DNA of 64,000 bases, taken from positions 496,001-560,000 of the forward strand of contig CP142732.1 in NCBI GenBank assembly GCA_036630325.1, in the 5' to 3' direction. Positions 1-50,939 of the stretch are shown piece after piece. Source of the stretch: Vairimorpha necatrix (lineage: Eukaryota). Each line of letters begins with the position of its first letter. Positions within the stretch are counted from its first letter, which is position 1. The notes beneath the pieces are model-generated. The model was not told the origin of the DNA, searched no databases, and was given only the letters and a program-made list of their open reading frames with translations. A program made the translations under genes and the position numbers.

Positions 1-59
1 GCTTGAATAATATATTGTTTAAAAATTTTTTGGGTTAATGTCAAATGGATAAGACACAG

Positions 60-153
60 CGCAATCATTAAGACATGAAACCAAAGTCTCTCGTATACGC
101 AGATGTTTTGGATTATTATGTAAGGTTTCTCTCTATCTCTTATTTATATAAAA
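60..153 (+). mobile_element. Degenerate 3' remnant of the tRNA-headed SINE family
   Basis: GAAACCAAAGTC..TATACG and TATGTAAGGTTTCTCTCTATCTCTTA match the 3' end of the copy at 45518-46310. Confidence 0.65.
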
Positions 154-570: not shown

Positions 571-571
571 G

Positions 572-6970: not shown

Positions 6971-7385
6971 TTGCCATAAGAAGTAGGCAACTCTTAAATA
7001 TGGATAAAGGGATTCAGTAACATGTTCATTAATATATACGTGAGGCACTTACTTGTTAACTTCCATTTAAACATTTTGCCCATGCAAAATGTTTATTTCA
7101 TATTGATTCCGACTCCTCTAAAAAGGTGGTTTGTGTCGCGTCCGGATAGATTTTCTGCAATATTATTATGGAATCAATTTGAAATTCCTGAGAAGAACAT
7201 TATCGTGCTAAGTCAAAAATTTTTACAGTCGCTTTAATCTCGCAGATGTCTGCTTACATGATCACATCATCGATCCTGCATTACACATAGCGAGTTTACC
7301 TTATTTTGCTATATTGTTATCCAACGCACAGAATAAATAAATAAGGTAGGGACCAGCGCCCCTGTTCTGCTTGTCTAGTCCATTT
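6971..7385 (-). mobile_element. Old SINE copy (3' half), back-to-back with the next copy
   Basis: Collinear matches to the reverse complement of 45518-46310, e.g. TAAGAAGTAGG, TCGCGTCC, GAACATTATCGTGCTAAGTCAA, CTTGTCTAGTC. Confidence 0.65.
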
Positions 7386-7571
7386 TATGTTACTTGAAAA
7401 TTTCAAAGTGATTAAAGTTCTTGTATCTGCAATAAAGAAAATTACGCACACTGAAAGGTACCGAACCTACATTATTTTAGTCATAAATGATATTTTGCAA
7501 CTACAAGTAAATTCCTTGTATCTGAATGCATACAGATTTTATTGTTCTATAACAAATACGTGAATACTTTT

Positions 7572-8341
7572 GGTCTCCTTTAGCTTAGTGGTCGAAGGCG
7601 ACGCTTCCAATGAGCAATGGCTAGTATAAATTTCAGAGACACCAAAATTGTTGATACTTTTCAAGATGCTGTTGGAACACCTCATATGATATAAATGTCC
7701 ACGATAATCATCAAATTGATTCAATGAAACTTGGGTGCGCCAATTTATAAGAGGATTAACATCTAGTGTAGAAACACATCGTAAGGCTAGAAACAGGTAT
7801 CCTTTGTGGAAACTTAATGATACATAAATGTACCTGTTTGTAACTAATTGGAGATTGTGTAATTTAGGTAGGATCCTAAAGCCAACTAAAAGACTAGACG
7901 AAGTAGAGCAAATGAAGTTCTGTGGACCCTATCTTACAAGTTTTGTAACACGGTAGTCAAAACTAGCTGGGACTAGAGGTAAATGCTGTCCAATAAAAAT
8001 ATCGAGCGGTGATATGGTGGTGTAATAAGCTGTTTGTGCGACACAGGAAATCTCAGGGACCTTTAAGTTAGTACAATAATTTATTTTTTCTGTGTATAGA
8101 AAATTATAACCGTTAAGTATATCCGCTCTGAGGTCACTCTGGGTTTGATTTATGATTTCTTTGATGACAGATTCTACTGGTGCCAAGTTCATGCATATTG
8201 CGGAGCTTGCTGCATCGGTAAGTTTGAATAGAGGAAGTGTTATAAGGTAAGATTAACCAATACCAGCTGGATAAAAATCTCGGCCGTTTTCCTTTGGTCC
8301 TTATAAAAGGGGTCGTTCCCTCTTACATATGAAGGAAAAAA
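7572..8341 (+). mobile_element. Full-length tRNA-headed SINE copy
   Basis: A-box TAGCTTAGTGG, collinear body, A-rich tail; flanking direct repeat ACGTGAATA (7558-7566, 8344-8352). Confidence 0.85.
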
Positions 8342-8360
8342 CAACGTGAATATATTTTAT

Positions 8361-16000: not shown

Positions 16001-17208
16001 ACTAGATTTGCACTAACGATGTTTCTAGTGGACGCCGTGTCTATTAATGCGGTAATTTCTTCATTGTTGATCAATTTTACTTTTATAAAAATATCTGTTA
16101 TTGGCTCTGTGGGTTCAAATATCATCGTATTATGTCGTTCAGTTTTTCTAAATGTCTTATTTTCGGCACTATGACCAACATAGTTTTGCTTCTTCTTAGG
16201 TAATATGCTAGAATTTGACGCGTTAAATTTTACTGGGTTATTGGTTTTCCCGTTTTCATTCCAGCTTTTTGTAGCGGAATATTTTTTTTGATTTTCTAAT
16301 TGAAGATTACAGATGTTTAGATTGCTTAACTCTTGTTCTAGTAAGTTGTTAATTAATTTCTTCTCGTAGTTTAATAGGTAATTATAAAGTGTATCAAAAT
16401 CTTCATCCTTCTCCAGGGATTGGACGTGGAGTTTTGTAAACCGTCCTAGGTTATTTAAAAAGGTGTCATGTAATTTTCTAGCGTACTCAGTTTTGGTGGT
16501 TTTTATTAAGGTGGTATAAATCTTCAGGCAAGTCTCTATCTCTTGCAAATATTCTTTAATAGTTTTGTAGTTATTTTGGTAGATTCTGTCTAGTTTCTTG
16601 GCGATCAAGGAGTAGGAACTCTTTGGGTACTTTAGTTTCACTAATTCTTCTTTCATGCTTTCGTAGCTCTTAGAAAATATATCTCGATCCACGTCTGGAT
16701 CTCGGAATAGATTGTTTAAAATTAGCTGAAGGTTTTCTTCTGTCCAAGATTGCTGTTTCATAAGGGATTCAAATTCTTTGAACCAGTGGAAAATATCAAC
16801 ATTCTCTAGATCATCTACCTGTAATATATCGACAGTGAATTTAGTCGTTTGCCCGGGGATTGGGACTTCAAATTTTACGTATTTCTTATTCTTTGTAGTT
16901 TCGTTCATGGGATCTTTTTTCTTATTTGATATCAAATTGTCGTAACCTCGGGTGAGGTGTCCGAAACATAGTTGTTGTTCTATGAATGAACAAATAAAGG
17001 GGTTTGTTTTAATTAAGTGTTTATTTTTATGATCTCTCTGTGGAGTCATGTTTACTTGTTGTCTCTCTGAGCTATTATATCTTTGCATCTTTTAGTGTGC
17101 CCTTCTTTTCATATTTTTTTATTTATAGAAAATATTTTCTAAAAATTCACTTTTTCTAAAAATTGAAAAATATGAAAAATTTAAGAAATAATTGTGGTGG
17201 ATACCACA
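13025..17208 (-). mobile_element. Ty3/gypsy LTR retrotransposon 2, apparently intact
   Basis: LTRs 13025-13294 and 16938-17208 (270/271 bp, about 5 differences), TG..CA ends; TSD GTATG on both sides; PPT at 13295-13308. Confidence 0.97.
13306..17088 (-). CDS. Gag-Pol polyprotein (gag, PR, RT, RNase H, integrase); likely start 16908
   Basis: LIDTAS, YIDD, ECDAS/ADTLSR, HHCC zinc finger, STDTYG/SDNGTEF/SEAIN DDE triad; single open frame; CCC precedes ATG 16908. Confidence 0.95.
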   Translation of the reverse strand: MQRYNSSERQQVNMTPQRDHKNKHLIKTNPFICSFIEQQLCFGHLTRGYDNLISNKKKDPMNETTKNKKYVKFEVPIPGQTTKFTVDILQVDDLENVDIFHWFKEFESLMKQQSWTEENLQLILNNLFRDPDVDRDIFSKSYESMKEELVKLKYPKSSYSLIAKKLDRIYQNNYKTIKEYLQEIETCLKIYTTLIKTTKTEYARKLHDTFLNNLGRFTKLHVQSLEKDEDFDTLYNYLLNYEKKLINNLLEQELSNLNICNLQLENQKKYSATKSWNENGKTNNPVKFNASNSSILPKKKQNYVGHSAENKTFRKTERHNTMIFEPTEPITDIFIKVKLINNEEITALIDTASTRNIVSANLVERLNLDKRENQQIKVLFGNSQVITLNETADMKFMTKECAEPFISEFYLMDNPAHHLILGNVFLSNNGCIIDYENYEMRLKKIKIPLIHESQPQEEVSEPDKIFFEKFACHREFDTEHEFTDKLLKEYTEKLNTSQPIYMKPINLNITEQDIVTQYKNYPVPEKFKIPAQEEITRLIHEGIIEKSESHITSPGFLICKKNGQVRLVIDYRYLNNYLIDEPCSIPNILENIKGIGEKKIFTQLDLKNSFNQIPLAKESRPLTTFVLFNQRYQYVRIPFGLKIGPKLFQRVILSVLGDIPNVFVYIDDIVIFANTIHEHDKILEEVITRLGNNNIQINLGKSHFHQEKITLLGYLISSRGIEPDLKYLEHKIFNKEIKTKRDLQCLIGLLNWYRPFVKDLSTRINKITDLLKSKEIKINEDHNKCIQKICNEIKEGSALKFPDFSRVFKLECDASNIGIGGILYQDHGTLGYYSKKLNSTEKNYSIVEKELYAITKCVLFFRNIVQGYHTIIYSDNKNCITINTAATSRMKRWHLLLQDFNVELVKIEGSKNNVADTLSRLTMINQIKLTKEGKFAKRVKEFLTGERDEKNRRIIKQEKDLRFIKLIHKFSGHVGVTKTYENIYRYYKIENIKLKVVEVIRECRKCKHYKIKHEKKRPSVNIRASNIFEKISTDTYGPFSLEGISHDEVTEKGYYITITDIFTRLSRVYFTYNANSESVLSCLNKWINKHKKPKSLISDNGTEFRNKEVEQYLTENDIIHILIPPYAPYANGISEAINKTITEVIKMNKGKEIKSITRKINFRLNENTNRTIKLSPKIILRGYNFFDLDQTPITYKPHTASSEVKEKYQIGQEVYIKNQNTKLTDKEYIGPYYITEVGKKQRWIKVQGIEDWVHVRNVKP

Positions 17209-19874: not shown

Positions 19875-20276
19875 TTATATTATTATGGAAAACCAACAAA
19901 TGCAGACATATATAATTCTATATAAGATTGTGAGATTAAATGTTAAAAGGGGCAATACAAAATAGTTTATATATTGAGATTCCATATAATAATTAACCAG
20001 GTATCCTAAAATTTTCAAAGGTGCATAATTCAATTTTTTAAGAATTCTTTTACATGAACGTATAAACCCAGTTTTAGGTTTAAAGATCTTAATCTTCTCG
20101 TAGTCGTCTACTATTATAATACAAATACCTTCTTCATTGTTAATTATATGAATTTCATGTATTCTCAATTTATTCATATTTTTTTGTAATTTATAGCTCA
20201 GATTATCGCTAAAGACAGTTGTTAATAATTCATCTATGAATGCTGTACATATTCCTATGTAAAACGCAAAAATCAT
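19875..20276 (-). CDS. Hypothetical protein with signal peptide and C-terminal hydrophobic segments (paralog A)
   Basis: Clear paralog of 23452..23808 (AFIDELLTTVF, IHIINN, FKPKTGFI). Confidence 0.75.
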   Translation of the reverse strand: MIFAFYIGICTAFIDELLTTVFSDNLSYKLQKNMNKLRIHEIHIINNEEGICIIIVDDYEKIKIFKPKTGFIRSCKRILKKLNYAPLKILGYLVNYYMESQYINYFVLPLLTFNLTILYRIIYVCICWFSIII

Positions 20277-21779
20277 TTTTGTTTGGATAAGTTTTTTGAG
20301 ATTTTATAGATGTTCTGATACAAAATCAACAAATGATAAAGTAAAAAATAGATCTTTTTATTTTTGCAATATTAGTGGTTAATCAATTATAGATCAGTTA
20401 TTATCTCTTATATATTTTCTCGTTTCATGATTTATTATTTAAAATATATATGACTAATAATCAAACAAAACGCTATATTTTATAATCATAAAATTTCTGA
20501 AATAGATTTTTAACTTTTTTTAAAATCCTTTATTATATTAAATTTATCAGTAATCGATTACGATATAAAAATTTCTTAGATAGACGATGATGATAATGAT
20601 TAAGATTTTTAATTATATTTAAAATAATTTTCAAATATTAAGATTGTCATATTCCCCAAACCCTATTTAAAATGTATCTCGCTGCAATTCTTAATCTGTT
20701 TTGTAATCTCAAGCAATCGAACATGAAACGTAATGTTTCACAAACAAATAACACAAGATGATGCTTCAGTATATATACCGCTACAATACAGAATATAAAA
20801 AAAGAAGCGTACAGGCTTAAAAAGCTATTTTTAAAAAAGAACTTACGAAATATTTATTTTTTTATGTCAATTGAAAAAAAAAAGGATTTCGCTTTCTCCG
20901 GTTAAAGATAATTCATTTCATTTGAAGATAAAATAAACAACGTTGTATTTATTTTAAATCATAGCTAATCACATATTATATATTTATTTAAAATCCATTA
21001 ATTACGTCACAATTTCTTGTATCAACATCTGTTCATCATAGGTTCTATATCCATAAACTTATCACTTGAAAGGTGTTTATATGCATCCTTTACAAAAATA
21101 TTGCACATACCCGACGATAACTGGCAGATGCTATCAGACCCGAGTTTTATTTGGACCTATGAGAGATTATGGCCTTAAATCGTACTGCTGATTATAATTT
21201 ATCTTCCGTTCCAATGTGCAGACCACCTCAATTCGATATCTCTAATCCAGAAGGTCTTATGTTAAAATTTCTTTAAAAGGTAACCAAATTATACACAAAT
21301 GGGCTTTCTCAGTTACGACTAATTGGCGTGCCAATATACTATTGGCATGTCTTCTTTCAATATAGCATAAATTACATATATCCGTCCAAAGAATATATCT
21401 TATTATACTATTTTATTGACAAAAATTTTTAGGAAAAGTGCTTTTTTAGCTTTAAGATTTTGATCTAAAGATTGATGAAGTTAAGATCTAATTCAGAAGA
21501 ACGCGCTTTGTAATGGTCAAAATCATATGTAATTTACAAAGAGTTGGGCACGATTTGACAAGTACGAAAAAATTTAGTTACAAGATTTTGAATCCTTTCG
21601 AATGAGAATTGTAACGATGCAAATTGAGAATATTGTATGCGATAAAATTTCTTGGGGATGTATGTATATGCGGAAAACGTATCTTAATGTTGAAAATAAA
21701 CAAGCTTGTGTGCTAATCTGTTGTATGCAAAGCAATAATTGGTTAAAAGGCACTTGGCTGATAAATTTGGAAATTTTTT

Positions 21780-21920
21780 CAAGCCAGAACAAGATAACAG
21801 ACAAAGTAGAGTAACAGATCTCGTTGATTTTATGATACAAGATTCTTTACACTAGGCCAAAACTTATGAAAGAATGATGGTTAAAACAGCTCAAAAATGC
21901 GGGAAGTTGGTAAGAATGGG
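21780..21920 (+). mobile_element. Old internal fragment of the SINE family
   Basis: CAGACAAAGTAGAG..TCTCGT..TACAAGATTCTTTACACTAGGCCAAAACT matches 45855-45926. Confidence 0.55.
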
Positions 21921-23451
21921 CACGCCCTTGCATAGATGCAGTCAATGTCGTAAATTTTCCGTTTTGGTGCGACGATTATCAAGATAAAATTTTTTTTTTG
22001 TATCGTACCGAACGATTTTATTTCTGTGAATATTTATTGAACAAAAATAAAATAATATAAAGCTGAGTTTACTAGATCAAACATCCAATGGAAAAAGTGC
22101 TACTTCTGGACCGAAAAGCTTAAAGATTGATTAGTTGTAAACTCTACAATATCATCCGAATCGTTTTAATTGATAACAATGCCTAACTAAAAAAATTCCT
22201 AACATTTCTTTGTATGATAGGAAAATTAAACAATAGCCTTTCTAAAAAAAACAATTCAAGATCTTGCATGCAAAAATGATTTTGTAAAGATATCCAAGCA
22301 ACTATTGTCTACGAAACAAAAACTCAGCTGTCAAAATGGCAAACACACTGTAAAGGATTCAGATTATAATTTGAAATTTTAATGTTCGTAATAACTAAAA
22401 AAGGTTACAGATTTAATTGTTTTAAGGAAATATACGGACATAAAATAACTATAAAAATGCTGAAAAGGTATTAAAATTGATGTTCAAGGAATTTTATGCA
22501 CAATTTGCATTTATACGTTATAAATAATTTTTTTAACCATGCCATAGGTCCTATTATATGATTTTTACATATAATAAATTGGGATTGCCCGTTTTGCCAA
22601 TTGTTTAACTTTAAAATATAGCATTATAAATATCAAACTAGTTTAGCTGCAAAATAGAATGTAAAATCGGCAGGGAAAACTCAAAGACACATTGACCGTA
22701 TGCGTTTAGTATATACAATAGATTAAAATCAATAAAAAACATATAAGAGCCTTTGTTTTTTCTTTCACAAAGCATAAATTTCATATTTAAAAGCCTTGAG
22801 AGTAATTTTACAGCTTAAAATTTAAATGCTATTTCGTAATCGTTAATAAAGTTTCTCGACATATTTTTGAAATAAAATCTAAAATAAGTGTGCAGTGATT
22901 ACCGCACTTAGTTGCGCAACGATCGCTGTATCTGTAAAAGCAAGCGGTATAGATTTGTTATTATAAGTGATTAAAATTTAGTTTCATGGGAGTATGAGAT
23001 CTTTAAACTGCTCAGAAAAATCACATATTTAATCATAAACTTTAAAGAACTATGATTTTTTAGCATAGATTTATTTTATGTTCTTATATGTTTTCTCGAC
23101 TAAGCGAGAGGTATTGTGGTCGATGGCATTTTAATATTAAAATTATGATATTCTTTATGTTAAAATAAAAATCAAATAGCAAGGTTCGTCAATAGATATG
23201 TACAAGACAAATTATTTGAACTATGAAACTGCTGATATGCGCTATACAAATGGCTTCATTAAGTAAACAAAAATATTAATTTTTTGAAGTTACTGTCAGT
23301 TATTAAAGTTGAATTTATAATTAGTACGGATAAAAACAAAATATTTATTTTCTTTTTATGCTTTGATTTTGGCCCAGTATGTTTTGAGGTAGGGATTTTT
23401 TGTGAGACAAGTTATTTTTGATTTTCTTGAAAATATATACTGATTAAAACC

Positions 23452-23808
23452 TTAGAAAATTGGAGAATAAAAAGTCATTATAGGCAAGAAAATATTGTTT
23501 CTAATATATTGTGCAACAATATAAATAAATATGGTGCCTAAAATTTCTATAGGTACATCTTTTAGCTTTTTTAGAATTTTATAACATGAATGTATAAAAC
23601 CAGTTTTAGGTTTGAATAGTTTTATTGTCTCATATGTGTCCACTAAAGTGACATAAAGACCTTCATCGTTATTTATAATATGTATTTCGTTTATTCTCCT
23701 TTCATCCATTTTCTTTATTAATTCATTTCTTAGAATATCGTTAAAAACAGTAGTTAACAATTCATCTATAAATGCCTTACATATTGTCATGTAGAATCCA
23801 AGAATCAT
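23452..23808 (-). CDS. Hypothetical protein, paralog B (likely start MILGFY at 23808)
   Basis: Aligns with 19875..20276 from this ATG. Confidence 0.75.
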   Translation of the reverse strand: MILGFYMTICKAFIDELLTTVFNDILRNELIKKMDERRINEIHIINNDEGLYVTLVDTYETIKLFKPKTGFIHSCYKILKKLKDVPIEILGTIFIYIVAQYIRNNIFLPIMTFYSPIF

Positions 23809-25543
23809 TTTTGTTAGGATTGATTTTTTGTTTTTATTTATTTTCTGATACAAATCAACAAAGATATGGAAAAGTAATATTTTTATTTTATGTTATATTA
23901 GTGATTTATCAATTAAGTTAAGGTATTTATCTAATTTTAATTTTCCCATTTTTTATGTATTTTTATAAATATAAATGACGAAATATTCAAGATAAAACAT
24001 TAATAAACACACCAATAAATTTATAAATGTATGTTTTTTTTGTTTAAAGCTTTGATATTAACTTTTTTTTTGCGGCAAATAAATACAATATAAAAATTCA
24101 TTAGATAGTTTTTTGCGATAAATAATTTAATTAAAAAATTGATTGAAGGACTTAAGATAATCGTGTTGCACCAAACTTTTTGACAATTTTTTGGTGTTAT
24201 GAGTATTTGAAGATTTGTAAATTGTATTATCGTGCATGAAACGTAATGTTTTATAAATTGTTTTAAATGATATGATGGTTAGATAGTTACCACGTCACAA
24301 ACCGATTTTGAGATATATTGTGAAAATACGAGCTTAGTCGGCAATTTTGCTGTTTATATTTTTGTATAGTTTTCAACAATTTTAATTAAAAGTGAGGAGA
24401 AATTCAAAAATTAGAAATTAAAAATATTTTAAAGAAAAATATTTAGACTAAAAAAAATAAAATTGTCTACAGCGTAATTTTAAATACAGAATCTATGTTA
24501 TAGACTGTTGTATAATAGTAAAATAAGATCTAAATTTAAGATATTTATATTAATTATCTTGTAGTACTACAAATACTAAAAATAGGTCTAATATTTATAT
24601 CAAAAGAAATAAATTTTTATATTTAAGATATTGTATAAATAATTGTAACAAACATTTAAAAATTAATTTAATGAACGGTTATATAGATTTTATCAGCATT
24701 TAAGCATATTAGAGGTTCAAATATTTTTATAAAAATTGATAAAAAAGATTTAGAAAAATAAAAATTATAGAGGTAAACAAGTAAGATGGTTCTTGTGTTA
24801 TGACATATTAAATGTACACTATAAGAACGGGGAGTTTAATAACATTTTTAATAAGTTTTGCTTAACATCACTGCGTAGTTTAAGTTTGTTAAAAGCCCCC
24901 TTCATGACCTTGCTACTGGTCTTCTTGTCAGAAGTACAACGAGATGCCCTCAATAGTCTCCTTAATGATCATCGTTTGGATATACGCTTAATTTCGCTCA
25001 GACATTTTTTTTTAATTTTGTATATTCCATGTACTTACAGACTATGAACCTGAGCATTATTTTTTTTTCTTTTTTACCATGTTATTTTTTAAAAGTTAAG
25101 GTTCTTTACTATATATCAATAACTCACACCAATTATAACATAATTTATTTCTTATTTGGTTTCTAACTAGCGTAATGATAAAAAGAGTCTAAATTTACTT
25201 ATATTCCACCGAGTTAACTGTATAACATAATTATATTTTTGTAATATTTTATTTATACTTATTTAACAAAAAAAAAATTGTTAATTATACGGCCTGTTAT
25301 GTGATACAAATTCGTAAACGATATGCAGTTTTTTTCGTTTTGCCAATAAAAAAATAAGGTCTATTGGTCAAGACCATGAGATAAATATGATATTACTTTA
25401 TTTTTGCTGTACTTTAAAATTCGATAACCACATACTATGTTATGTATCCATTTTTTTAAGCTACTGTAAATATAACGATAATCCTATAAGAGGTATAAGC
25501 TTGTAAAAGGCATATCACACAATACAAAAAGTAAATAGGATAT

Positions 25544-26319
25544 GGTGCCTTAGCATAATGGTCGAAAACGATGTGTCCATCGAGCAATGGCTGGGTTCAA
25601 ATCACGACACTAAAGTTGTTTCTACTTTTTATAATGTAGTTGGAACAACTCAGATATAGGAAATGTCTACGATAATCATTAAGTTGATTCAATGAAGCTG
25701 TGTGTTTAGCCACAAGGGGATTAGCATCTAGTGTAGAAACGCACCTCAAGGCCGAAAACAATATCAATCTTGTGGTGACTTAATGGTACTAAAAAAAATC
25801 TGATAGGTATGGGGTAGGTGGACCTCATGGCCGGTGCACTCTAGAGTGGGACCCTAATGCTTACTTAGAGACTGGACGAAGATGGGCAATAGAAGTTCTC
25901 GTGGACCCTACCCTTCAAGATTTTGTAACACGGTACCCGAAACTAGCGGTAGACTGGTGATCAACCTAGCACAATAAAAATGCCGGGCTAGTGGTTTCGA
26001 GGTGTAAGTAGCCGTGTATGGATACAGATAATTGTAGGGACTTTTGAATAGTACGATTATTCTATCCTCGGGTTATAGATACCTATGCCAGTTAAGTATA
26101 TCCGCCATGAGGTCACTATGGATGCGATTTGAGGTATAAATGGAAAATGTTCTCCTGGGGCCAAAATACAAGGTATACGGCAGAGCTTGCTGCACCGCAA
26201 GTTGTATAAGGGAGTTTAGTGAATAAGAATCTCATATTATCAGTTGGATCAAGATCACACTCAAATCCCTCTAATCCCTATGTAAGGTTTCTCCCCACCT
26301 CTACTTGCAAGAAAAAAAA
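25544..26319 (+). mobile_element. Full-length tRNA-headed SINE copy with long TSD
   Basis: GGTGCCTTAGCATAATGG..GGGTTCAAATC head; CTTGCAAG(A)n tail; TSD AAAAAGTAAATAGGATAT (25526-25543) / AAAAAGTAAATTGGAGAC (26315-26332). Confidence 0.9.
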
Positions 26320-27707
26320 GTAAATTGGAGACAGTCTAAGATACATAAAGACTGGTAAAAATTATAACATGAAGTCAATAAAGTAGCAATGTTCTTGGTG
26401 GATCTTCACAAACATGTGTAATATTGGACTTACATTATAGACAGTGTTAAAAAAAATATATTTATCAAAATGGTTCAGAAATGGGTTTCCCAACCTGCAA
26501 TTTAACGTTTAAAGCGTTTGTCTTCCTGATGTATAACATATGTGATTTAGTTATCGAGAACCTCAGAACGCATGCTATTAGAATATTTTTTGATTATGTT
26601 TTTATACAAATAATATGACAGGGGTTGAAACGTATTTCGCTGCCTGGCTGAGATTTTTGACATATGGCGGTCCCAATATCCATTTCAGGTAAATTTTAAC
26701 TTTAAATGTCCTATACCTTTGTGAAATTAAGTTACAACTTTTTACTGTTGTTTTTTTTTTAATATTAGAATGATTTTTAAGGATTTTTTTGTTAAAAATT
26801 GGGACCCTAAAGATTTTTTGCGACTTTTTGATAGCTTTTCAACATCACAAGATTTACAAAATATAACATTTTTACATATATTAAGATTATCATCTCAATT
26901 ATTGCTAAAGTAGTTAATAAGATCTTAATATTAATTCTATTAAATTTTTTTTAGTCTTAAACTATTCACAACAATAATCATCTTCAATACTTTACAAAAC
27001 CACCTAAACTGGAAATATTCAATGAAATTTATTTAATAACACTTAGCCAAAGCAATGATTAAAGCTTTCCATAAGGTCAAAATCAATGGCCAGAAATAAT
27101 TACAGACTTTTTCAATTAGCTACTACATTATATTCATCGATATTTTATGTTGACGAAGTTTAGCTATTCAAAGTTTTTAGATTTCGTATGTTTTTAAGTA
27201 AAGATTGCTTTGTTTTCATTATGACATCTATTGTTAGATTTATTATTATAGAAATCTTTTCTTATAATTTTCCTATAAATTCAAAGAGTAACGAAAAATG
27301 CTTTGTATTTATTTCGCTCTTTAATTCCTAGTTTCCTGATTGAATACCAATATTTATGGGAATTTGATGCTTATCTATCAGCGTAATTCAAAATTATTCT
27401 TGCTATACGCATAATCCGGCGATCGTCTTATATATTATCAATTCTCTTGTAAAATGAACAGATAGCAGATACCTGATTTCAAATGTATCTAATCTTTTTT
27501 ATTTAGATTTATCAAGACTTATCAATTTTTTTTAATAACTTTTATTTAGATTCCTTTTCATTTATTTGATCAGCAATTAATACCCTCTAAAATAAAAATA
27601 TTTTTTTAAATTTTTCACACTTCGACACTCATACTCATCAAAAATTATTTTTCATCATTAGTTCAGTTGTTTTGTCACAAATTTTTTTCTCATCTCACCC
27701 CTTTTAA

Positions 27708-30937: not shown

Positions 30938-31703
30938 TTTTTTCTTTGCAAGTAAAAGGCAGGGAGAAACTTTAATAGGGACTAAAAGGATTTGGGTGTT
31001 TTCCTATCTAACTGGTACTGCGAGATTCTTACTCACTAAAACTCCCTCCATACAACTTGTTTGTCCATACAGTTCCGCCGTATCCATTGGATTTTGGTTC
31101 CAGAAGAACATTTTACATTTATACCCTAAATTGTGTCCGGTGTGATCTCACAGCGATGTGTTAAGCGGGCGTAGTTTGCACGGAGGATAAGCATCATTGT
31201 ACTAACTCAAAGCTCCCCACAATCATTTCTATCGCACACACGGCTCCTCACGCCTCCACATCTCCAGCCCAGTATTTTTATTGGACTGCATTTACAGCAA
31301 TCTCCCACTAGTTTTGGCCATCGTGTCACAATTTCGTGTAGGATAGAGTCCACGCGACATTCTACAGCCCCACTTCATCTAGTCTCTTTTTAACTCTCAG
31401 ATCCTATGCTAAGGCGCACCAGCCATGAGCTTCAACTGAGCTGTACCCATCAGATACTTTTATATATCATTTTTTCATTCAAAAGTGATGCTGTTTTTTC
31501 GGCCTTGAGGTGCGTTTATACACTAGATGCTAATCCTCATATGGCAAAGGGAACAAATTTCATTGAATCTACTTAAAAATTATCAGTTACATTTCTTTTG
31601 AGTTTTTCCAACTGCATTATAGAAAGTAGAAACAATTTTGGTGCATTAAGATTCGATCCATGCTAATGGAAGCATCGTCTTCAAACACTAAGCTAAGGGC
31701 ACT
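30938..31703 (-). mobile_element. Full-length SINE copy (reverse)
   Basis: Reverse strand begins AGTGCCCTTAGCTTAGTG and ends TTACTTGCAAAG(A)n; body collinear with other copies. Confidence 0.88.
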
Positions 31704-33338: not shown

Positions 33339-33995
33339 TTTTTTTTGCAAGTTAGCGGCAAGCCCTTGAATGGGGACCAATATGAATTTGCCGATGCTCA
33401 TCCAGCTGGTACTGTTAGATTCTTACTTATAAGACACCATTATATATCAAGCTCCGCCGTATCCATTGGACTTTGGCTCCTGTAGCATATTTTCTATCTA
33501 TACCTCAAATAGCGTCCAGAGTGACCTCACAGCAGATATACTTAATGGATATGATTATCATGAACCCAAGAAACATCGTCGTACTGACTCAAAGAGATAT
33601 AACTCAAATGCACTCACACAAGGCCAAATCACAAGCTCGGTCTTATATTAGGTTGGACTGACCCCTTGTCCCCTTGACCGCCGGGTACAGAAGCTTGTAC
33701 ATAGAGCCATCGTATATACCTCGTGATTCATTTAATTATCACTGGAATTCCCAGAGTGCACTAGCAAATACTTCAAATAATATTCCACAAGAAAATGTCA
33801 ATTTTAGTTTAGACACTTTTGAACTAATGCCAAGTTCTTTATGGCTTAACGAACAATAAAGTAGATCCAAACTAGATATTATCTTAGATTTTATCGCCTG
33901 AGTTGTTCCAACTGCATCATAGAAAATTTTAGGCCCCCGAGATAAACCTGCCAGCTCAATTAGGAGACTCTTGCACTTTTGCTAGGCTGCGCCTC
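33339..33995 (-). mobile_element. Diverged SINE copy (reverse)
   Basis: T-run plus TTGCAAG at 33339; CAAGCTCCGCCGTATCCATTGGACTTTGGCTCC and GAGTTGTTCCAACTGCATCATAGAAA match the reverse complement of 45518-46310. Confidence 0.85.
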
Positions 33996-34215
33996 CGAGA
34001 AAATAAAAGAAGATCATTTCATATGCCGATACAATAGAAGGTAGATATTTTTAAAAAATGTTTATTTTAAACTAGTAGACACAGTTTTTATATTTGATCT
34101 TCTGGCGTCCGTATTGATAGACCTTCTTTATTTTTCTGTAAATAAAGCTCTTATAAAAAAGTCTTAAATAGATCTAATATAAGCTTATAATATAAAATTC
34201 TAAATTAATTGTTGT

Positions 34216-34987: not shown

Positions 34988-37498
34988 CTAGTTCCATTTA
35001 TTTGGACTGTCATTACTTATGTCTTTTATATTTGGAAATATCTCGGCCACATTTATGTCGTCACATAAATTAAAATATTTCTCTAAAATCTCATGTCTCT
35101 GTTGACACACTTTGTCATTCAGCCCACTGTCTTTACAATACTCAGGCTCAATAAAAAGGACCGAATCTTCTTCATCTGATTTTATATGAGGAATTATTGT
35201 ACTGGACTTGTAGTCATTTTGAGATAAACATTTTCTCTGGCTGTCGATTACTCGTCTGTAAAGATCATTTTTAATAATCGAGGGGTCTCTTAGAAATCTA
35301 GAGCTTTTTACATCGTAGACTTTATTCTTCTCGGGACTGAGTCTCAAATTAGGCGAGTCAAGATTCTTCATAATCTTCTTTATATTAATTTCTAGATCTT
35401 TACTGCTTGGTGGCTTAACTTTGTCATCTACGAAGACAGAGTTCCTTTTTATTTCGATCTTGTTTTTCTCTTTCTTAAATATGCTTTTTAATAAATCATT
35501 TCTCGCTTTGAGATTGAGTTTCTGTGGGGGATCGTTCACTAGATTTGTGGGGTCTTTTTCTTTTTTGACTATTTTTACAGTTAAACAATCCGCGGGCCTA
35601 ATTTCATCATTCACAATATTATCGACATTTACAAGCTTGCTTTCTACTGGCTTATTTTCGTGTACTATATTATAGTTTACTATATTTTCGTCTAATGGCT
35701 TGTCTTCTTTTACTACATTGACCTCCACTGGCTTATTTTCTTTTTCATTTAAAATGGGGTTTACACTGGTCTCCTTATCCATAATTATGTCTTTTTCTTT
35801 CTCTAAGTTTATTTCTTCGTCTTGTTCTTTTATTATGTCTTCTTCTTTCTCTTTTACTATGTTTTCTTCGGATTTTCTTCTGCCTAGTTTTATAACACGG
35901 AGTTTTTCGTTTATGTTGCTCATTGTTGTTTTCTGTCTATTTCTCTTTTTTGCATTCATCGTGATGCCTTTCTTACGTGTTTTGATTGTTTTCTTTGGTT
36001 TTGATTTAATTTGATTAGCTACTAAATCTTCTTCCCTTTTAATTGCAGTGGCTTCTTTGTTTATTATTTCAGGGATACTGAAATTGCCTTTTATTAGTGT
36101 CTTAGATACTTTTGAGACTTGATGTTCTAGTTTCTCCCCAGGTAGCTTTTCTGCATTTATCTCATTTTGTACTTGAGGGAGGGGCTTCTCGTCATCCTCA
36201 GTACTTTTAAAATGATCATTGTATCTTTTTCTTCTTTGTACTACGGATTTCTTAGTATTATTCTTTACTATTAAATCTTCATTAATTATTTCTATAATTT
36301 CCTCATTTTTAATAATTTTATCTTCTTTACTAGTTTCCTCATTTTTTATATTTTCATTTACATTTTCCTTTCCTAAATTTTCAGTCTCTGCTTTGCTGAT
36401 TTCATTTTTGACATTTTTCCTGTTGACCTTCTTCTTGGTATTTTTAAAGTTTTCCTTTCCTAAATTTTCAGTCTCTGCTTTGCTGATTTCATTTTCGTTT
36501 AATTTCTTCCTTCTCGTATTTGTTGCTTGTAGGATCTCCTTTTCTTTACTATCTTTTTTAATGCTTTTATTCTCGTTATTTATATTCTTCTTTCTCGTAT
36601 TTGTGTTGACTTGTTTTATAATCTCCTTTTTAGTGTTTTCATCTTCTTTACTAATGTTCTCACTTACATCATCTTTTCTCAATTTTACGCGGTCATTTTT
36701 AATATTTTCAGTTTTCACATTTTTCAATTCTTTTTTGTTGGTTTCTTTATTTGAGTTTTCTTGTTTGACGCTCTTGATTTTAGAATTTAAACTTTTTATA
36801 TTCCCTTCACTCTCTTTTAATGAATTTTCCTTTAGTTTCTCGGTTTCATTTCCTGCTTTTTTCCTTCTTATGTTTGCACTCTCTTTTATTGGAAGATTCT
36901 TGACATTTTTCGTTTTTATATTTGCTGTTTCTTTTTTTATGCCTTCGCTCTCTTTTAATGTTTTTTCCTTTATAATTTCGCTTTCATTTTTTGTATTAAA
37001 CCTTCCCACGTTTGCTGTCTCTTTTTTAATGTGTTCACTCTCTTTTTCTAAATTTCCTTTTATGTTTTTCCTTCTCAAAATTGCTGTTTCTTTTATTTTC
37101 TCTTCGCTCTCTTTTAATGTACTTTCCTTTAAATTGCTTTTGGTTAAATTTCTTGTCTCTTTTTCTAAACTTCCTTTTATGTTTTTTCTTCCCAAGTTTG
37201 CTTTTTCTTTTTTAATGAGTTCACTCTCTTTTATTAGATTTCCCTTTATGTTTTTCCTTCTTGAGTTTGGTGTTTCTTTTTTATCACTTTCTTTTAAACC
37301 TTCACTCTCTTTTAATATTATTTCTTCTTTCGTTTCTAAAGAGTTCTCTCTCCGAAGTCTTTTTACTCTCCTACTTTGCTCGATCTTAAGTTTCAAAGGC
37401 ACAAGTGAAGACCTCCTTCTTGTTCTTTTTTCACTAATTGTTTCAATGTAAAATGTGTGCCACTGGTCCAGAATCTTTTCTAAAATGGATTTTATCAT
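34988..37498 (-). CDS. INCENP/Sli15-like chromosomal passenger protein
   Basis: Long charged, repeat-rich body; C-terminal IN-box-like segment SDEED..EPEYC..L..QQ..EKYF..INVAEIF..SPNKW. Confidence 0.7.
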   Translation of the reverse strand: MIKSILEKILDQWHTFYIETISEKRTRRRSSLVPLKLKIEQSRRVKRLRRENSLETKEEIILKESEGLKESDKKETPNSRRKNIKGNLIKESELIKKEKANLGRKNIKGSLEKETRNLTKSNLKESTLKESEEKIKETAILRRKNIKGNLEKESEHIKKETANVGRFNTKNESEIIKEKTLKESEGIKKETANIKTKNVKNLPIKESANIRRKKAGNETEKLKENSLKESEGNIKSLNSKIKSVKQENSNKETNKKELKNVKTENIKNDRVKLRKDDVSENISKEDENTKKEIIKQVNTNTRKKNINNENKSIKKDSKEKEILQATNTRRKKLNENEISKAETENLGKENFKNTKKKVNRKNVKNEISKAETENLGKENVNENIKNEETSKEDKIIKNEEIIEIINEDLIVKNNTKKSVVQRRKRYNDHFKSTEDDEKPLPQVQNEINAEKLPGEKLEHQVSKVSKTLIKGNFSIPEIINKEATAIKREEDLVANQIKSKPKKTIKTRKKGITMNAKKRNRQKTTMSNINEKLRVIKLGRRKSEENIVKEKEEDIIKEQDEEINLEKEKDIIMDKETSVNPILNEKENKPVEVNVVKEDKPLDENIVNYNIVHENKPVESKLVNVDNIVNDEIRPADCLTVKIVKKEKDPTNLVNDPPQKLNLKARNDLLKSIFKKEKNKIEIKRNSVFVDDKVKPPSSKDLEINIKKIMKNLDSPNLRLSPEKNKVYDVKSSRFLRDPSIIKNDLYRRVIDSQRKCLSQNDYKSSTIIPHIKSDEEDSVLFIEPEYCKDSGLNDKVCQQRHEILEKYFNLCDDINVAEIFPNIKDISNDSPNKWN

Positions 37499-40706: not shown

Positions 40707-41941
40707 CAGGGGGTTGAATCGTTATAGTGCGATGTTTGAATTTCTATATTCCCATGTTTAAATTTCTATAGTGCTATAAAAAGTTGAAATTTAAAAATTT
40801 AAAAAAAAATTTATTAAATAAAGTCTTCTCTTGCTCTTGCCTTTTCTTTCCACTCCATCATATTTCTATAAAATCCAGGACACTCACGGCTAGAATTTAA
40901 ACTCAAAACATTATCAAGGCTTGTTTCAATTTGACTTTCTGCATTATGAAAAGATATAAACCTTGCCTTGAGCATCGAAAAGAATTCTTCGATGGGATTT
41001 AATTGTGGAGACTAAAGAGGCAGAAATTTATGATTGATCCCTAGACTGTTTAATTTTAGTAAAACTTCCTGCGAATGATGAAAACTAGCATTATCCATAA
41101 TTAGAATTTTACCCGGATTATTCCTAAAGAACATAGACAATTTATTCTCCACAAAGTTCATAAAACTCTCAGAGTTATGCGCTCCACGTTTAAACTCAAA
41201 TGGCCTGCAATCCATTTATTGTAATTACGCACATGCAGCTGATATTTTGGCTGCGATTTGCTGGCACATTCTTATAGGCTTTGGTGGTTTTCTCTGAGTA
41301 TCCATAACTACGGGTCGTATGGGCGTTGAACCCAGTTTCGTCATGGAAAACTAGTTTTTCAACAGAATACCTACTAATTCCAGATGCATAGATACTTCTT
41401 TTATTTAACTTGTTTAAAGAATTACGTTCAACAGGAATTAATGAAATTTTTTATATTGTTATACCTAGTTTTTTAAGTTTTTTCGATATTGAAGATATGG
41501 TCAAATTTACTCCTGTTCGTGTATTTAGCTCGTCGAAAATTTCTTTCAAAGTCATATCATTTGCACAATCAACTATGTTTTTTATAACACGCCCTGTGTT
41601 TGAAAGTATTTAGCTTTCACCCAACTGCGGGAAAGGGCCAACGGATTGATTGTGCTGTCTTTTTATGATAGATGCAACGGTTTTACAATGTAAATCAACC
41701 ATCCTCGATATTTAGGCCATGGATCGTTTTCATCTTTCGCTAATTCCAAAACTACATTTCTTAATTCAGTAGTTATGGTTTTTCTTTCTTTTCTAACCAT
41801 AAAGGGGCATAAAAAATGAAAATTTTTATGGAACTTAGAAATTCAAACATGGCACTATAGAAATTCAAACATGGCACTATAAAAATTCAAACATGGGAAT
41901 ATAGAAATTTCAACATGCCTTTATAGAAATTCAAACCCCTG
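40707..41941 (-). mobile_element. Tc1/IS630-type DD34E DNA transposon with decayed transposase (40814..41800)
   Basis: TA|CAGGGG...CCCCTG|TA ends; 21-bp subterminal repeats; FHDETGF, MDNASFH and SPQLNPIE with 34-residue D-E spacing; stops and frameshifts. Confidence 0.93.
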
Positions 41942-44556: not shown

Positions 44557-45517
44557 CGATGACGACAATTGTTGTTGAAATAAAAATTTTCAAGTTTTAA
44601 CGATAATTGTAACGCTTATTTTTAATTTATATTCAATTTTATTTCAGCTTTTATAGATATCTGATCACAATTCAATTTTTTTCGCATTATATATATTCAC
44701 TTCACATTAATTCATCATAAGAATTATATCATTATTATCTATTTCTTTGATCAAATGTCACAATAATACAAAAAAATAGATGAAACTAAGGTATATACGT
44801 GAGAAAATATACGTAATTTTTATAAATCTGGTTTATTCCCGTAATACAATTGTTTTATATAAAAGTTATCTCATTTAAGTTAAATAACAATTAATTGATT
44901 TTTTTTAAGTATAATATCTTAAATTACGTTTACTTTATAGCACACAAGCTCACTTTTATCAATATTAGACACTGGATTTTCCTATATATCTTCCATTTGG
45001 CTCTAAAATAGCCTTTCCTTATCAATATCAGCGCATGTCTGCTTGATAAAAATGAGATTTCTGCGGTCATTTAAGGACTCTTTTTATCCGCTCGAATTCA
45101 AATAAGCTGTTTTTATGAGTGCGGTGGTATTTATTTATACGACATCTTGAAATAACATATATGTAATAATTGTAGGTATATTTGTATGCCGAAGCTACGT
45201 CGTCTGCCAGCACAAAAAAAACTTTTAACCATTAACAGTGCTAAAAAACATTGGTCATATTTTTATTTTGATTATATATATGGTCGACAGAAACTAAAGG
45301 CTATTATTCAGAATCAAAATTCCAAGAGGCCATATAATCCTCGAAAGAAGATTTTAATGTACTTTTATCTACTTAAGAACTTACAAAAGCCAAAATTATC
45401 TACGAATGCGAGCAGAAACACTAAATAATAGCGGAGAGAAGTCTTTCTATCATATGTTTGTAAGTTGAATAAGATTTGGAATTTTAAGAGATGTACAACG
45501 ATGCTAAAAGAACCGCA

Positions 45518-46310
45518 GGAGCCCTTAGCACAGTAGTAGAATGCAATGCTTCCATTAAGCAATGGCTGGGTTCGATTCCCAGGGGCACCAAAAATTGTTT
45601 CTACTTTCTATGATGCAGTTGGAACAACTCAGTTGATGAAAATGTCCACGATAATCATTAAGTTGATTCAATGAAACTTGTGTGTGTCCAGCCACAAGGG
45701 GTTTAGCATCTAGTGTAGGAACGCACCTCAAAGCCAAAAATCAGTATCACCCTTTGGTGACTTAATGATACATAAAAGTATCTAATGGGTACGAGCTAGT
45801 TGGAGCCCATGGCTGGTGCACTCTAGAGTGGGATCCTAGAGCTAACTAAGAGACTAGACGAAGTAGGGCAATAGAAGGTCTCGTGGACGCTATTCTACAA
45901 GATTCTGTAACACGGTGGCCGAAACTAGTGTGAGACTGGTGGTCAACGCAGCCCAATAAAAACGCCGTGCTGGGGATGTGGTCGTGTAAGGAGCGTGTGT
46001 GCAATACAAATGATTGTAGTGACCTTGAGTCAGTACGATGATGTCTCTCCTCGGGTTATAGATAACTATGCCCGTTAAGTATATCCGCTGTGAGGTCACT
46101 CTGGACGCGATTTGAGGTATGAATGGAAAGTGTCTCCTGGAGCCAAAGTCCAATGGATACGGCGGAGCTTGCTGCACCGGCAAGTTGTATGGAGGGAGTT
46201 TTAGTGAATAAGAATCTCACAGTACTAGTTGGACGAGGATCACACCCAAATCCCCCTGGTCCCTATGTAAGGTTTCTCCCTACCTCTTACTTGCAAGAAA
46301 AAAAAAAAAA
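45518..46310 (+). mobile_element. Best-preserved tRNA-headed SINE copy
   Basis: tRNA-like head 45518-45590 (GGAGCCC/GGGCACC acceptor, CTGGG-TTCGATT-CCCAG T-arm), ~700-bp body, 3' hairpin, A13 tail. Confidence 0.92.
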
Positions 46311-46486
46311 TTACAAAGAAGACACTAATGAGCATCTCTTTTGAACATGTTAAGGATTTGTCGGAGAGGAACTGAAATTAAGAACATAGTAGAGATAGAT
46401 AGAAGGTGGTGTGTTTAGAGAGAGTGCGCGGTAGTGGAAGTAAACTGAAGAAAGCAAACCAAACAATAGGTTCAAAAAATGATTTA

Positions 46487-49400
46487 TGTCTTTATTTATC
46501 ATAAATTGGGGTCAATAATATTACAGAATATAACATCCCCCTCCAAGACGGTTAGTCTCATACTTACTCAAACCCCCTTTAAATCATAATGTCTTTTCTT
46601 CACCAGCCGTCCTGTTTCCAATCGTACAATATAAGAATCACCTCCACAAATCGCGTAAATTTTTCCCTTCTCCATAAATCGTCCTTTTTCATATTTAGTA
46701 CATCCTTCAAATTTTCCTTTTTCGCTACTCGTACTTTCTGATTCCTGTAAAACTTTTCTCTCTTCCATTTAACAAACTTCTTACTGTATCTTCCTTCAGG
46801 ACCATTTTCTATCATAACTTTTCCACTAGTATCCATAATTGCCTCTTTCGGTGTACAATCTAACCCACTGTGGTAACTATTATTATACATATCAATCGCT
46901 CTCATAACCTTATCGTCAAAATCATCGCCTTTCATTTTCATAATAGCTTCTCTCAATGTTCCTATTACTCTCTCTACACGTCCATTACTACGGTGGCTTT
47001 CTATGCTTATCTTCCTGTGAGCAATATCTAATCTTCTACATAATATCCTAAGATCCCCCCATTAACAAATTCCTTGCCATTATCGGTTATTATTTCCTCT
47101 GGTCGGTTTCCGTTCCTACATAAACTTTCTATAAACCAAGCAACATTCTGAGCCTTTTTTTCCTTCATGCTTACTCCCCAAATCAATCTAGTATGGTAAT
47201 CAACACCAATCAAAACGTAATTACATTCGTCGCGAAATTCAATCAAATCAAAAGCTACTTTCTATAAATATCTACTGGTACTAATAAAATCACATCCGCC
47301 CGACTTCTTCCTATTATAAATTTGACATCTTTCACACTTCAATAACTCATTATAAATCTCCGACTTCATCCCTAACCAATAGTAAAGCTTCTTCATCGCA
47401 TAATAAACACTTCCAACACTACGAGGGCCTCCATTTTCGTGATATTCCATTATTAATTTTGCCCCATTTCCTCCTTTAGTATCTCTGCTCTTATACCACT
47501 ATCAAAGACCCAGTATTCCTTTCCATCTTCATATACTGTATGTTTCTTCTCTTTTCCTTCGATTTGTTTCACTGTTCTTTTCTTTATCATTTCCTCTTTC
47601 TCAGTCTCTTCAACGGGCGCTCTACTTAACGCATCGGCCACTACCATTATATCTGGCTTCATGTACTTAATTGTAAAATCGAACTCTTGAATCTCCTCTA
47701 TCCACCTATTAATCCTATTAATATCAAAATGTGGCTTTCACCTGATTTCTATCAAAGCTTTATGGTATGTTTCAACTTTAAATTTACGACCTCTTAATTC
47801 ATATTCGAACTTTTTGATTCCCCAGTAGACCGCATATATCTCTTTCTCGCTTATTCCGTATCTTGATTCCGTGGGAGTAAACTTTTTCGAAGCCCACTGT
47901 ACCATCACCCACTCCTCTTCGTCATTCTTTTGCATTAATACCGCGCCCATTCCTATGTTTGACGCATCTGTTCTCAATAAAAACTCCTTTTCAAAATTAA
48001 CTATCTTCAACTTTCCCAATGTCTTAACCTTTCCTTTCAACTTAACAAATTCATCTTTCATATTTTCTGTCCATTTCCATTCGTTCTTACCCTTCAAACT
48101 GTCGGTCAAATGTACCGTTAAATCCGCATAATTTTTTATAAAGCTTCTAAACCATTCTGTTAATCCTAAAAATCTCCTTACTTCTGACACGTTTTGTGGC
48201 TCTGGGAATTCTAACGCTTCGTTTTGTTTTATTTCAGACGGTGTTATCTCTAAACCATTTAGTGTAAACCTCAATAGCTTTACCTCCTTCAAGCATAACT
48301 GTACCTTATTAATATTAATCCTCATCTTATTATCTTCCAACTTCCTAAGTGCTTCTCCTTACATTATATCGTGCTTCTCTCTCGTCGCTGCATGTATTCC
48401 AATATCATCCATATACACTTCTATTCCATTTCCCAAGTGTCTCTCAAACAATTTATTCATTATTTTTTGTAAAATCTGCGGGGAGTTCTTGCATCCCATA
48501 ACCATACTATTCCATTCATAAACCCTTCTATTAAATTCACTTGCAGTTTTATGTTTATCTGCCTCGTCGATCTCAATACTATAAAATCCTTCCTTTAAGT
48601 CAATTACCGTAAAATATTTTGAACTCTGTGTATTCCTAATTATGTCTCTTATATTAACTAATTCATAAGGATCCTTTTCAACCAAATCATTCAAGGCCAT
48701 CAAATTACTCACTAGCCTCATTCCGCAATCTGGCTTTCTTAACGCTCTTATTGGATTTCTCCATTCCGAATTCGACCTTCATATTACCTTCCTCTTTTCC
48801 AGGCCTTTAATAAAATTTTCAGTATCCTCCATTAATGCTTGAGGTATGCACTGTCCTTTCTTCACTACTTTAGCACCCTCTTGTGTTTTTATCTTACATT
48901 TCTCAATCGTACAATATTCTATAACCTCGTCTCCCGAACTAAACACTTTCCTATATTTTGTCTTCAGTTCTTCAAGTCCTAAAATGCTTCCAGCTGCCTC
49001 AACTTCATTTTTTCTTTTTAAAGTTCTCTACTTGTAGGCTTCTTTTGCCTCTTCGCGGCTGCTGTCGTCCTATATCCACTCCGCTCACTAACACTACTAT
49101 CATCTTCGTAGACTGCATTGCACTCCTTTTTATCTTTTCCTTTATATTTGTAATAACATCTATCTCTCTTATGTCCCATTCTCTGACACTCATAACATCT
49201 TATAACTCTTCTTCTCACAGCCCAACGCCTCTGCTATTCAATCTCTCCTCTTACCTCTCTGACGATTCTCACCGTCATCTCCTTCAACATCTCTTTCTCT
49301 CCTCTCTGCTCTTCCTCTACTATATACATCTCTTCTAAAACTTTCCCCATTTTCTCAATTCCGTCCTCCTTCCTCACATATTCTACCATAAAATTTCTCA

Positions 49401-49642: not shown

Positions 49643-50939
49643 GGCGCTACTAAAAAATTCGCACCCCCTAAAAAATACGTTCACTGAAAAAAAATTATTT
49701 GGTATAAAATGAGATAAAATCAAATTTTAAAGGATTTTTTTCCGGGGGGGTGCGAATTTTAAAGTAATGGTATTTTGAACGTGAAATTTTTTTTATTTTA
49801 TCTATCCCTTATAATGAACAGGATGATGGACGAAATGCTCCAATTCAATCCATACAATCCTATTTTCACTGATGATTACAGGGCAATCGACTACGGATTG
49901 AAGAACAACTTGTTATATCCTTGTATTCCCTGTACTAATGATCAGTGCAAAGGAATTATGTTTATTCAAAACATATCTTTGTTTTCTCAAGGAAAGGGGT
50001 ACAAATGTAGCAAAAAATTTTGTAAACGAAGATGTTCATTAAATAAAGGTTCTAAATTTGAATCTTTAGATATTGAATTTAAAAAAAAATTTCGTTGCAT
50101 TTATTGTTGGTGTTTGTCATATACTAATTTTCAGGCTATCAACATGTGTGAAACTTCTGAACCAACATATATTTCTGTAAAAGAAATAATAATGGAAACA
50201 ATTTCCAAGTCTTCTACTGTTTTTAAAACGATAGGTGGAGTTGGTCAGAGGATACAAATAGACGAAACAACCATTTGTAATGGAATTATAGTATCGAATC
50301 CGTCTAGTCGATTGGATTCTGAACCTGGAATTCAGTGGATAATAGGAGGTGTATTAAAAGAAAAATGTAGAAAGTTTTTTGTGGAACTAATACCCAATTG
50401 AAAATGGGAAACGATTTTACTAGTACAAAAAAAATGTGTAAAAGTAGGCACGGATATAATAACTGATGGTTATCTATCCATCCTATCCACGTGCTATAAG
50501 TGAATTTGGTTCTCACCATAGTGTGGTAAATCACTCTATGGGATTTTGTAATGAAGAAGGACAAAATACAAATTATGTAGAAAATATGTGGTCGCATCTT
50601 AAGCATGATTATAGAAAGCGTGGAGGAATGAATAAAATAAGAATTAAATGTTGGTTAGATGAGTTTAAATGGAAAAAAAAATATGGAATAGTCAAAACCA
50701 TTTACAATCAAATTAGCCTCGTAAAAATAATTGATATTTTTTCTATGTTAAAGTAATTAAATTTTTAAACTAAATAATATGTTATAACTGTTTTTTTAAA
50801 TATTTTAACTTTTGTAAATTCATATTTTCATAAAAATATTGTTTTAAATATAATTTTAAGGGTTAAATTTTTTTTTTTTATATAAATTTAATTGGTCAAT
50901 GTAATTTTTTTTAGGGGGTGCAATTTTTTAAGTAACGCC
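49643..50939 (+). mobile_element. Merlin (IS1595/ISXO2-like) DNA transposon; transposase pseudogene 49814..50756
   Basis: ~33-bp TIRs GGCG(C/T)TACT..GCACCCCCTAAAAAA; 8-bp TSD CAAAATTG/TTAAATTG; QIDET, ITDG, VNHS..TNYVENMW motifs; internal stop at 50399 and a frameshift near 50472. Confidence 0.92.

Follow-up and report, generated by a model that had tools for sequence, protein, structure and literature searches.

A repeated unit of ~780 bp in the genome of a Nosema-like microsporidian is probably a tRNA-derived, LINE-dependent SINE, and thus a non-autonomous non-LTR retroposon. It resembles tRNA-derived SINEs in carrying a head that looks like a tRNA and contains A and B boxes, an unrelated and apparently non-coding body and an A-rich 3′ end, and also in its target-site duplications (TSDs), its 5′ truncation and the dispersal of its copies on both strands. 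What distinguishes it from most SINEs is its length of ~780 bp and its microsporidian host. Elements of this type (SINE2) are known from fungi, for example Mg-SINE of Magnaporthe. For the unit described here, we infer transcription by RNA polymerase III (Pol III) and dependence on a LINE. The preliminary description of this DNA had already favored a SINE, and that interpretation is supported, because every structural hallmark open to testing within the window (the whole 64-kb stretch of DNA that was analyzed) was found.

Ten places in the window bear the unit, six as strong copies and four as relics, distributed over both strands. They were located by BLASTN with positions 45518-46310 as the query, by an nhmmer profile made from the aligned copies, and by lenient BLASTN against the majority consensus, which was used to extend the relics. 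For the relics, 80 shuffled controls were run, of which the best reached an E value of 0.012. The same ten places had been listed in the preliminary description, and all of them indeed carry the unit, each relic scoring better than the best shuffled control. The copies, in window positions, are these:

45518..46310, plus strand: best-preserved full-length copy, 793 bp, with its head at 45518-45590 and its B box at 45569-45579.
25541..26314, plus strand: full-length copy, 82% identical to the reference, with a 15-bp TSD.
7572..8341, plus strand: old full-length copy, 70-73% identity, with an A box matching at 9/9 positions, a decayed B box and tail, and a TSD of ~21 bp.
30938..31702, minus strand: full-length copy, 77% identity, complete from the head through the body to the tail motif and the A run.
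33339..33996, minus strand: divergent mosaic copy (E 4.9e-149), with the tail motif and A8 as in other copies.
62533..63079, plus strand: 5′-truncated copy covering profile positions 212-786, with an intact tail motif and A run.
6971..7380, minus strand: decayed relic, in which 6971-7282 corresponds to consensus positions 777-440 (BLASTN, E 3e-11).
21791..22260, plus strand: decayed relic, with a firm part at 21791-21897 (E 1.5e-9) and collinear pieces at E 0.084 and 0.23.
58829..58925, plus strand: relic with internal deletions, consisting of collinear pieces at 58829-58851 (E 4.6e-5) and 58902-58925 (E 9e-4).
37..145, plus strand: relic of a copy's 3′ end, with a firm part at 117-145 (89.7% over 29 bp, E 0.004).

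The nhmmer profile yielded six long matches, with E values from 3.5e-146 to 9.7e-256, and in addition a segment of the minus-strand relic at 7187-7380 (profile positions 325-529, E 1.2e-6). With the reference copy 45518-46310 as the query, BLASTN aligned 7577-8242 at 73%, 25548-26319 at 82%, 30938-31700 on the minus strand at 77% and 62622-63079 at 76% identity, and also returned short matches at 117-145, 21791-21897 and 58829-58852. The least secure piece of the relic at 37..145, at positions 37-60, scores only E 0.52. Full-length copies measure 765-793 bp, and the six strong copies together amount to ~4.3 kb, or 6.7% of the window, with boundaries read from the alignments. The minus-strand relic at 6971-7380 and the plus-strand full-length copy at 7572-8341 stand head to head, and the TSD of the younger copy lies at their junction.

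Two of the strong copies depart from the common plan. The mosaic copy at 33339-33996 contains blocks (BLASTN, 33393-33925, minus strand) that are 84-85% identical to the reference, including one short stretch aligned as identical, and differs from it in the head and the middle. This pattern hints at subfamilies that may have exchanged modules. The copy at 62533 begins near profile position 212-230. Because the first ~210-230 positions are absent and the tail is kept, it represents a 5′ truncation, in agreement with an earlier claim that one copy is truncated in this way. Close to its 5′ end, a small stretch of the copy looked duplicated by eye; TRF did not report this tandem duplication. The unit is therefore dispersed and multi-copy, with a uniform 5′ end and one 5′ truncation, as a SINE should be.

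The surrounding genes speak to the identity of the host. For a CAF1 deadenylase gene at 60556-61335 on the minus strand, the best named match is from Nosema granulosis (81% identity), and Encephalitozoon species come next. The window also contains genes for ribosomal proteins S25 and S4, eIF4E, a ubiquitin-conjugating enzyme and a cNMP-binding protein. The preliminary description had proposed a microsporidian host, and the relationship of the CAF1 gene confirms this, with the host appearing to be Nosema-like. The unit had also been described as richer in GC than its surroundings, which is accurate: GC content is 45.5% in copy 45518 and 37.6-41.7% in the other copies (37.6-45.5% overall) and 43% in the consensus, compared with 20-39% in the 1-kb bins of the window.

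The head of the unit is tRNA-like. ARAGORN identifies 45518-45590 as tRNA-Met(CAT), which is its sole tRNA call in the window, with an anticodon loop that is non-canonical and differs between copies. The Rfam tRNA model aligns end to end with this head, but its 22.6 bits fall short of the gathering score of 29. The E value is 0.055 for 1 kb × 4227 families, equivalent to ~1e-5 if the tRNA model is considered by itself. A permissive Rfam scan of the whole window detects tRNA nowhere else, and no family reaches its Rfam gathering score anywhere in the 64 kb. In the other three of the four full-length heads, no tRNA was recognized by ARAGORN or Rfam, and ARAGORN likewise calls no tRNA in the majority consensus of the six copies.

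The A box starts at unit position 9, and 9/9, 8/9, 8/9 and 8/9 of its specified positions are matched in the four full-length copies. The B box starts at unit position 52, with 4/9, 7/9, 7/9 and 9/9 matches. Copy 45518 retains the full B box, and the exact B-box pattern occurs once in the 64 kb, compared with 0.09 occurrences expected. A specific A-box string had previously been noted in the 7572 copy and a specific B box in the 45518 copy, and both are present. In all four full-length copies, the start lies no more than a few bases from the tRNA +1 position, and the sequence upstream of this point is not shared in the alignment. The head thus has the A and B boxes at tRNA spacing that are expected of a tRNA-derived SINE, even though only one of the four heads is detected by tRNA finders.

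Target-site duplications were sought by comparing the 32 bases that precede each head to the 34 that follow each tail, with 30 mismatched flank pairs serving as background. All 30 mismatched pairings score 8 or less. Two copies clearly exceed this level. Copy 25541 scores 13 and is flanked by 25526-25540 and 26315-26329, a duplication of 15 bp with one mismatch and an A run at its start, and copy 7572 scores 11, with a duplication of ~21 bp containing mismatches (7551-7571 and about 8338-8358). The first of these corresponds to the A-rich TSD of 18 bp that had been reported earlier, a length that is roughly reached if the A run is counted. The other four of the six strong copies, including the best copy 45518, score 6-7, which equals background. 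Among them, copy 30938 on the minus strand has a weak TSD at a plausible position, with a background-level score of 6.

Both clear TSDs begin A-rich and flank head and body together. Because they enclose both parts, the head moves with the unit and is not a neighboring tRNA gene. The preliminary description had held that the copies should share a consistent 5′ start, an A tail and TSDs. When tabulated across the window, the start is uniform in 4/4 full-length copies, the tail is present in 5/6 strong copies and clear TSDs border 2/6, which together provide the A-rich 3′ end and the target-site duplications of a SINE.

The 3′ end is formed by a tail motif and, directly behind it, 6-13 A residues, and this arrangement closes five of the six strong copies; in the sixth (7572) the tail has decayed. 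In the best copy, the A box at unit position 9 is followed by the body, the tail motif and finally A13 at 46298-46310. The tail motif and A run had also been recognized in the preliminary description, and they hold up well: allowing up to two mismatches, the motif occurs nine times in the window compared with 1.33 expected, and none of 100 shuffles reaches nine. Although one change in the tails looked compensatory by eye, a conserved 3′ stem-loop is unsupported, with a consensus fold of seven tails that comprises six pairs at -1.57 kcal/mol and one compensatory pair.

The body between head and tail appears to be non-coding, given the indels between copies and the finding that no Pfam family matches any ORF of at least 55 aa inside them. 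Within the unit, only tRNA scores credibly in permissive Rfam scans, and the body is therefore not derived from 5S, 7SL, snRNA or rRNA. The fold of the whole unit as an RNA is not unusual, with z values of -0.86 for the sense and +0.13 for the antisense strand (20 shuffles each).

Several features of the body and tail bear on the polymerase that would transcribe the unit. At ~780 bp, the unit exceeds the usual length range of SINEs, and such a length is atypical of what Pol III transcribes. Near unit position 681 there is a conserved T4 run, and runs of this kind could stop Pol III in some organisms. An AATAAA also occurs internally, near unit position 440. These observations would fit an alternative in which the unit is a LINE-dependent, non-autonomous retroposon that is transcribed by Pol II, with a tRNA-like 5′ end that is a relic and not a working promoter. 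The preliminary description had argued for Pol III on the grounds that the best copy has no run of five or more T. The observation is correct, but it carries no weight as an argument, because among 5000 shuffles that preserve the composition of this copy, 2552 likewise have no such run.

A model for Pol II transcription is available in Eg-R1 of Blumeria graminis. As portrayed in PMC6022598, this SINE-like element has no A or B box, contains internal poly(T), lacks a genomic poly(A) and is expressed as a polyadenylated RNA that encodes a peptide, which establishes that such elements exist in fungi. Like Eg-R1, the unit is a long, SINE-like, non-autonomous retroelement that is abundant in an obligate biotrophic fungal parasite. 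Unlike Eg-R1 as portrayed there, the unit has both boxes, a genomic A run and no Pfam match in its ORFs. Eg-R1 is accordingly a functional rival model and not a relative of the unit. Transcription by Pol II nevertheless seems unlikely to us, because all four full-length copies have their A and B boxes precisely at the 5′ boundary and with the canonical spacing of a tRNA, the best copy keeps its full B box, and the genomic A run follows directly after the tail motif in five of six copies, with no polyadenylation signal just upstream of it.

The window also contains other mobile elements and is rich in those of the gypsy type:

570-4107, plus strand: Ty3/gypsy element with LTRs at 570-921 and 3756-4107 (352 bp, 100% identical).
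13025-17208, minus strand: second gypsy element, with LTRs at 13025-13294 and 16938-17208 (98% identical).
46571-48778 and 63370-63999, minus strand: decayed gypsy pol pieces with integrase, RNase H and RT domains.
40817-41450, minus strand: decayed DNA transposon, in which three adjacent ORF pieces match DDE_3 (Tc1/mariner-type).

The first gypsy element has a 991-aa ORF (832-3807) with gag, protease, RT and RNase H, and Pfam finds no integrase domain in it; the element may be young and devoid of integrase. The second has an intact 1260-aa gag-pol that includes integrase. The decayed pol pieces at 46571-48778 and 63370-63999 are located directly beside the SINE copies at 45518-46310 and 62533-63079, respectively, either by chance or because of a shared landing zone. 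Just upstream of one gypsy LTR, at 421-560 on the plus strand, a unit of ~37-40 bases is tandemly repeated three to four times. A weak match to an IS1595/ISXO2-like DDE transposase at 50463-50753 on the plus strand (E 3.8e-4, below the cut-off) is possibly a Merlin-type remnant. A further pair of repeats, at 19951-20583 and 23483-24108, is 72% identical over ~640 bp on the same strand and contains ORFs without a Pfam match. Finally, internal imperfect repeats occupy 36363-37324 within an 836-aa ORF (34988-37498, minus strand) that has no Pfam match.

With gypsy elements so plentiful in the window, and with copies 45518 and 62533 directly adjoining gypsy pol remnants, the unit could be imagined to be a solo LTR, a part of an LTR retrotransposon (TRIM or LARD) or a MITE. 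We regard this as extremely improbable. The unit differs in sequence from the LTR pairs of both intact gypsy elements. Neither direct nor inverted repeats are present at its termini, an A run closes its 3′ end, and no pair of copies flanks a coding region; its TSDs, moreover, measure 15-21 bp and not 4-6 bp. The LTR, TRIM and MITE readings were rejected for the absence of terminal repeats, for the differing gypsy LTRs and for TSDs far longer than those of LTR elements and most DNA transposons. The preliminary description had itself named an LTR identity as the outcome that would speak against a SINE, and the comparison with the two intact gypsy elements, together with the absence of terminal repeats, speaks clearly against that identity.

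For a tRNA-derived SINE, the route of amplification would be an ordinary one. A source copy would be transcribed, presumably by RNA polymerase III, from the A and B boxes in its head, and the transcript would extend across the body into the A-rich end. The reverse transcriptase/endonuclease of a LINE elsewhere in the genome would then nick an A/T-rich target, prime on the A tail and, by target-primed reverse transcription, insert a DNA copy of the RNA into the chromosome. Integration of this kind would leave behind an A run, a target-site duplication of 15-21 bp and, at times, a 5′-truncated copy.

The LINE partner would have to be encoded outside the window. Among the 126 ORF translations scanned from the window, Pfam finds no non-LTR reverse transcriptase or LINE-type endonuclease, and thus these translations reveal neither a partner nor a shared LINE/SINE 3′ end. 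Wherever Pfam does find a reverse transcriptase among them, it accompanies RNase H and integrase domains of the gypsy type. Partners are plausible in the Nosema clade, however, since Table 1 of PMC4202319 covers four Nosema species and gives every one of them 4-15 non-LTR families, and Table 2 of PMC3614468 assigns 1.4% of the N. bombycis genome to LINEs.

The copies in the window differ widely in age. Pairwise identity among them ranges from 60% to 82%, corresponding to K2P distances of 0.21-0.59, which bears out an earlier remark on their varied divergence, and the relics are ~40% diverged. Each of the other five strong copies is more closely related to copy 45518 than to any other; this copy is also the GC-richest, and it can be read as the least decayed one. 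The ~40% diverged relics, the wide divergence and the closeness of the best copy to all others fit a family that was probably active over a long time, as do pieces ~97% identical to that copy in another sequencing run, where they adjoin different flanks.

The unit is also found in other sequencing runs. Five public sequencing runs carry 0.05-0.15 of the sampled words of the window; none of these is recorded as RNA, and none contains the locus itself. Contigs from four runs were aligned to the region at 80% likeness, yielding 275, 17, 492 (X3) and 1 (X4). The foreign contigs cover only the bins at 45505-46324, which is to say the unit, and their depth is zero on the left flank at 45300-45504. 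The lower contig depth beyond 46325 reflects some other repeat, with 46325-46488 being repeated in other runs at lower depth. The boundaries of the unit are independently confirmed by these contigs.

The loose contig ends beyond 46306/46307 differ from one another, and one contig of run X2 extends to the left of the head into sequence that is not that of the window. Because the contig ends differ and the left flank in X2 is unlike that of the window, the foreign copies occupy different insertion sites. Two X2 pieces of 308 and 241 bases show nine and five differences, respectively, from copy 45518; this identity of ~97% is far closer than that of any paralog in the window, and the pieces adjoin different flanks. 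At more than 20 places, nearly all X1 and X3 contigs share a letter other than that of copy 45518, and because they agree so consistently, these letters are private changes of copy 45518. Summed contig depth rises toward the 3′ end in X3 and is flat in X1; the rise could reflect 5′ truncation or a tail that other elements have in common with the unit, but contig depth is not equivalent to copy number. Of the patterns made from conserved blocks, two gave zero matches in metagenome contigs, and one also gave zero in genome and viral contigs.

These data show an abundant family in at least two other labeled organisms and a bat gut metagenome; a freshwater metagenome (X4), with its single contig, adds little. 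Such a distribution raises the question of origin, as distinct from mechanism, in that the SINE might have come from outside by horizontal acquisition, for example from an arthropod host, and might now be shared by several organisms. Its consensus, at 43% GC, stands apart from a genome of roughly 20-39% GC, the runs of the two other labeled organisms and of the bat gut and freshwater metagenomes have many pieces of the unit and not of its flank, and 108 of the 492 X3 contigs are at least 99% alike. The other labeled organisms may, however, simply be related microsporidia or infected hosts, and the age of the window's copies, with K2P values reaching 0.59, means that they have long been resident. 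We consider an outside origin to be quite improbable.

Microsporidia are a textbook case of genome reduction. Surveys of their transposons have mostly been protein-based and were therefore unable to detect SINEs. Consistent with this, neither "SINE" nor "SINEs" appears in the main text of the protein-based survey PMC4202319, and both words are also absent from PMC7313128. The repeat table of N. bombycis (PMC3614468, Table 2) assigns 0.18% of the genome to SINEs in addition to the 1.4% for LINEs, and 14% to unknown repeats. Although this SINE class belongs to the same microsporidian clade, it is represented in that source by a line of the table, with which no family, structure or sequence was found, and its 0.18% of a genome compares with the 6.7% of this window that is made up by six strong copies. 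The present family may be counted in this class or among the unknown repeats. That line is the sole mention of SINEs that we found for microsporidia. Full-text searches of the literature revealed no paper describing such a family in Nosema, in Vairimorpha or elsewhere among microsporidia, although an entry may exist in a catalog such as Repbase, Dfam or SINEBase.

The mechanism proposed for the unit is ordinary, but the SINE is apparently undescribed, reaches local abundance and occurs in a lineage noted for reduced genomes. It is conceivable, although we hold this broader view with some doubt, that it constitutes the first characterized SINE family of Microsporidia: ~780 bp long, GC-rich and tRNA-headed, making up several percent of a Nosema-like genome, active from ancient to recent times, and perhaps having crossed species between parasites or between parasite and host. 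A well-defined SINE would account for part of the large fraction of "unknown repeats" in such genomes, would show that LINE machinery has acted in trans, and would offer a Pol III-type promoter for study in microsporidia. Its insertions would likewise provide presence/absence markers for the typing of strains and species among the Nosema-like parasites of insects.
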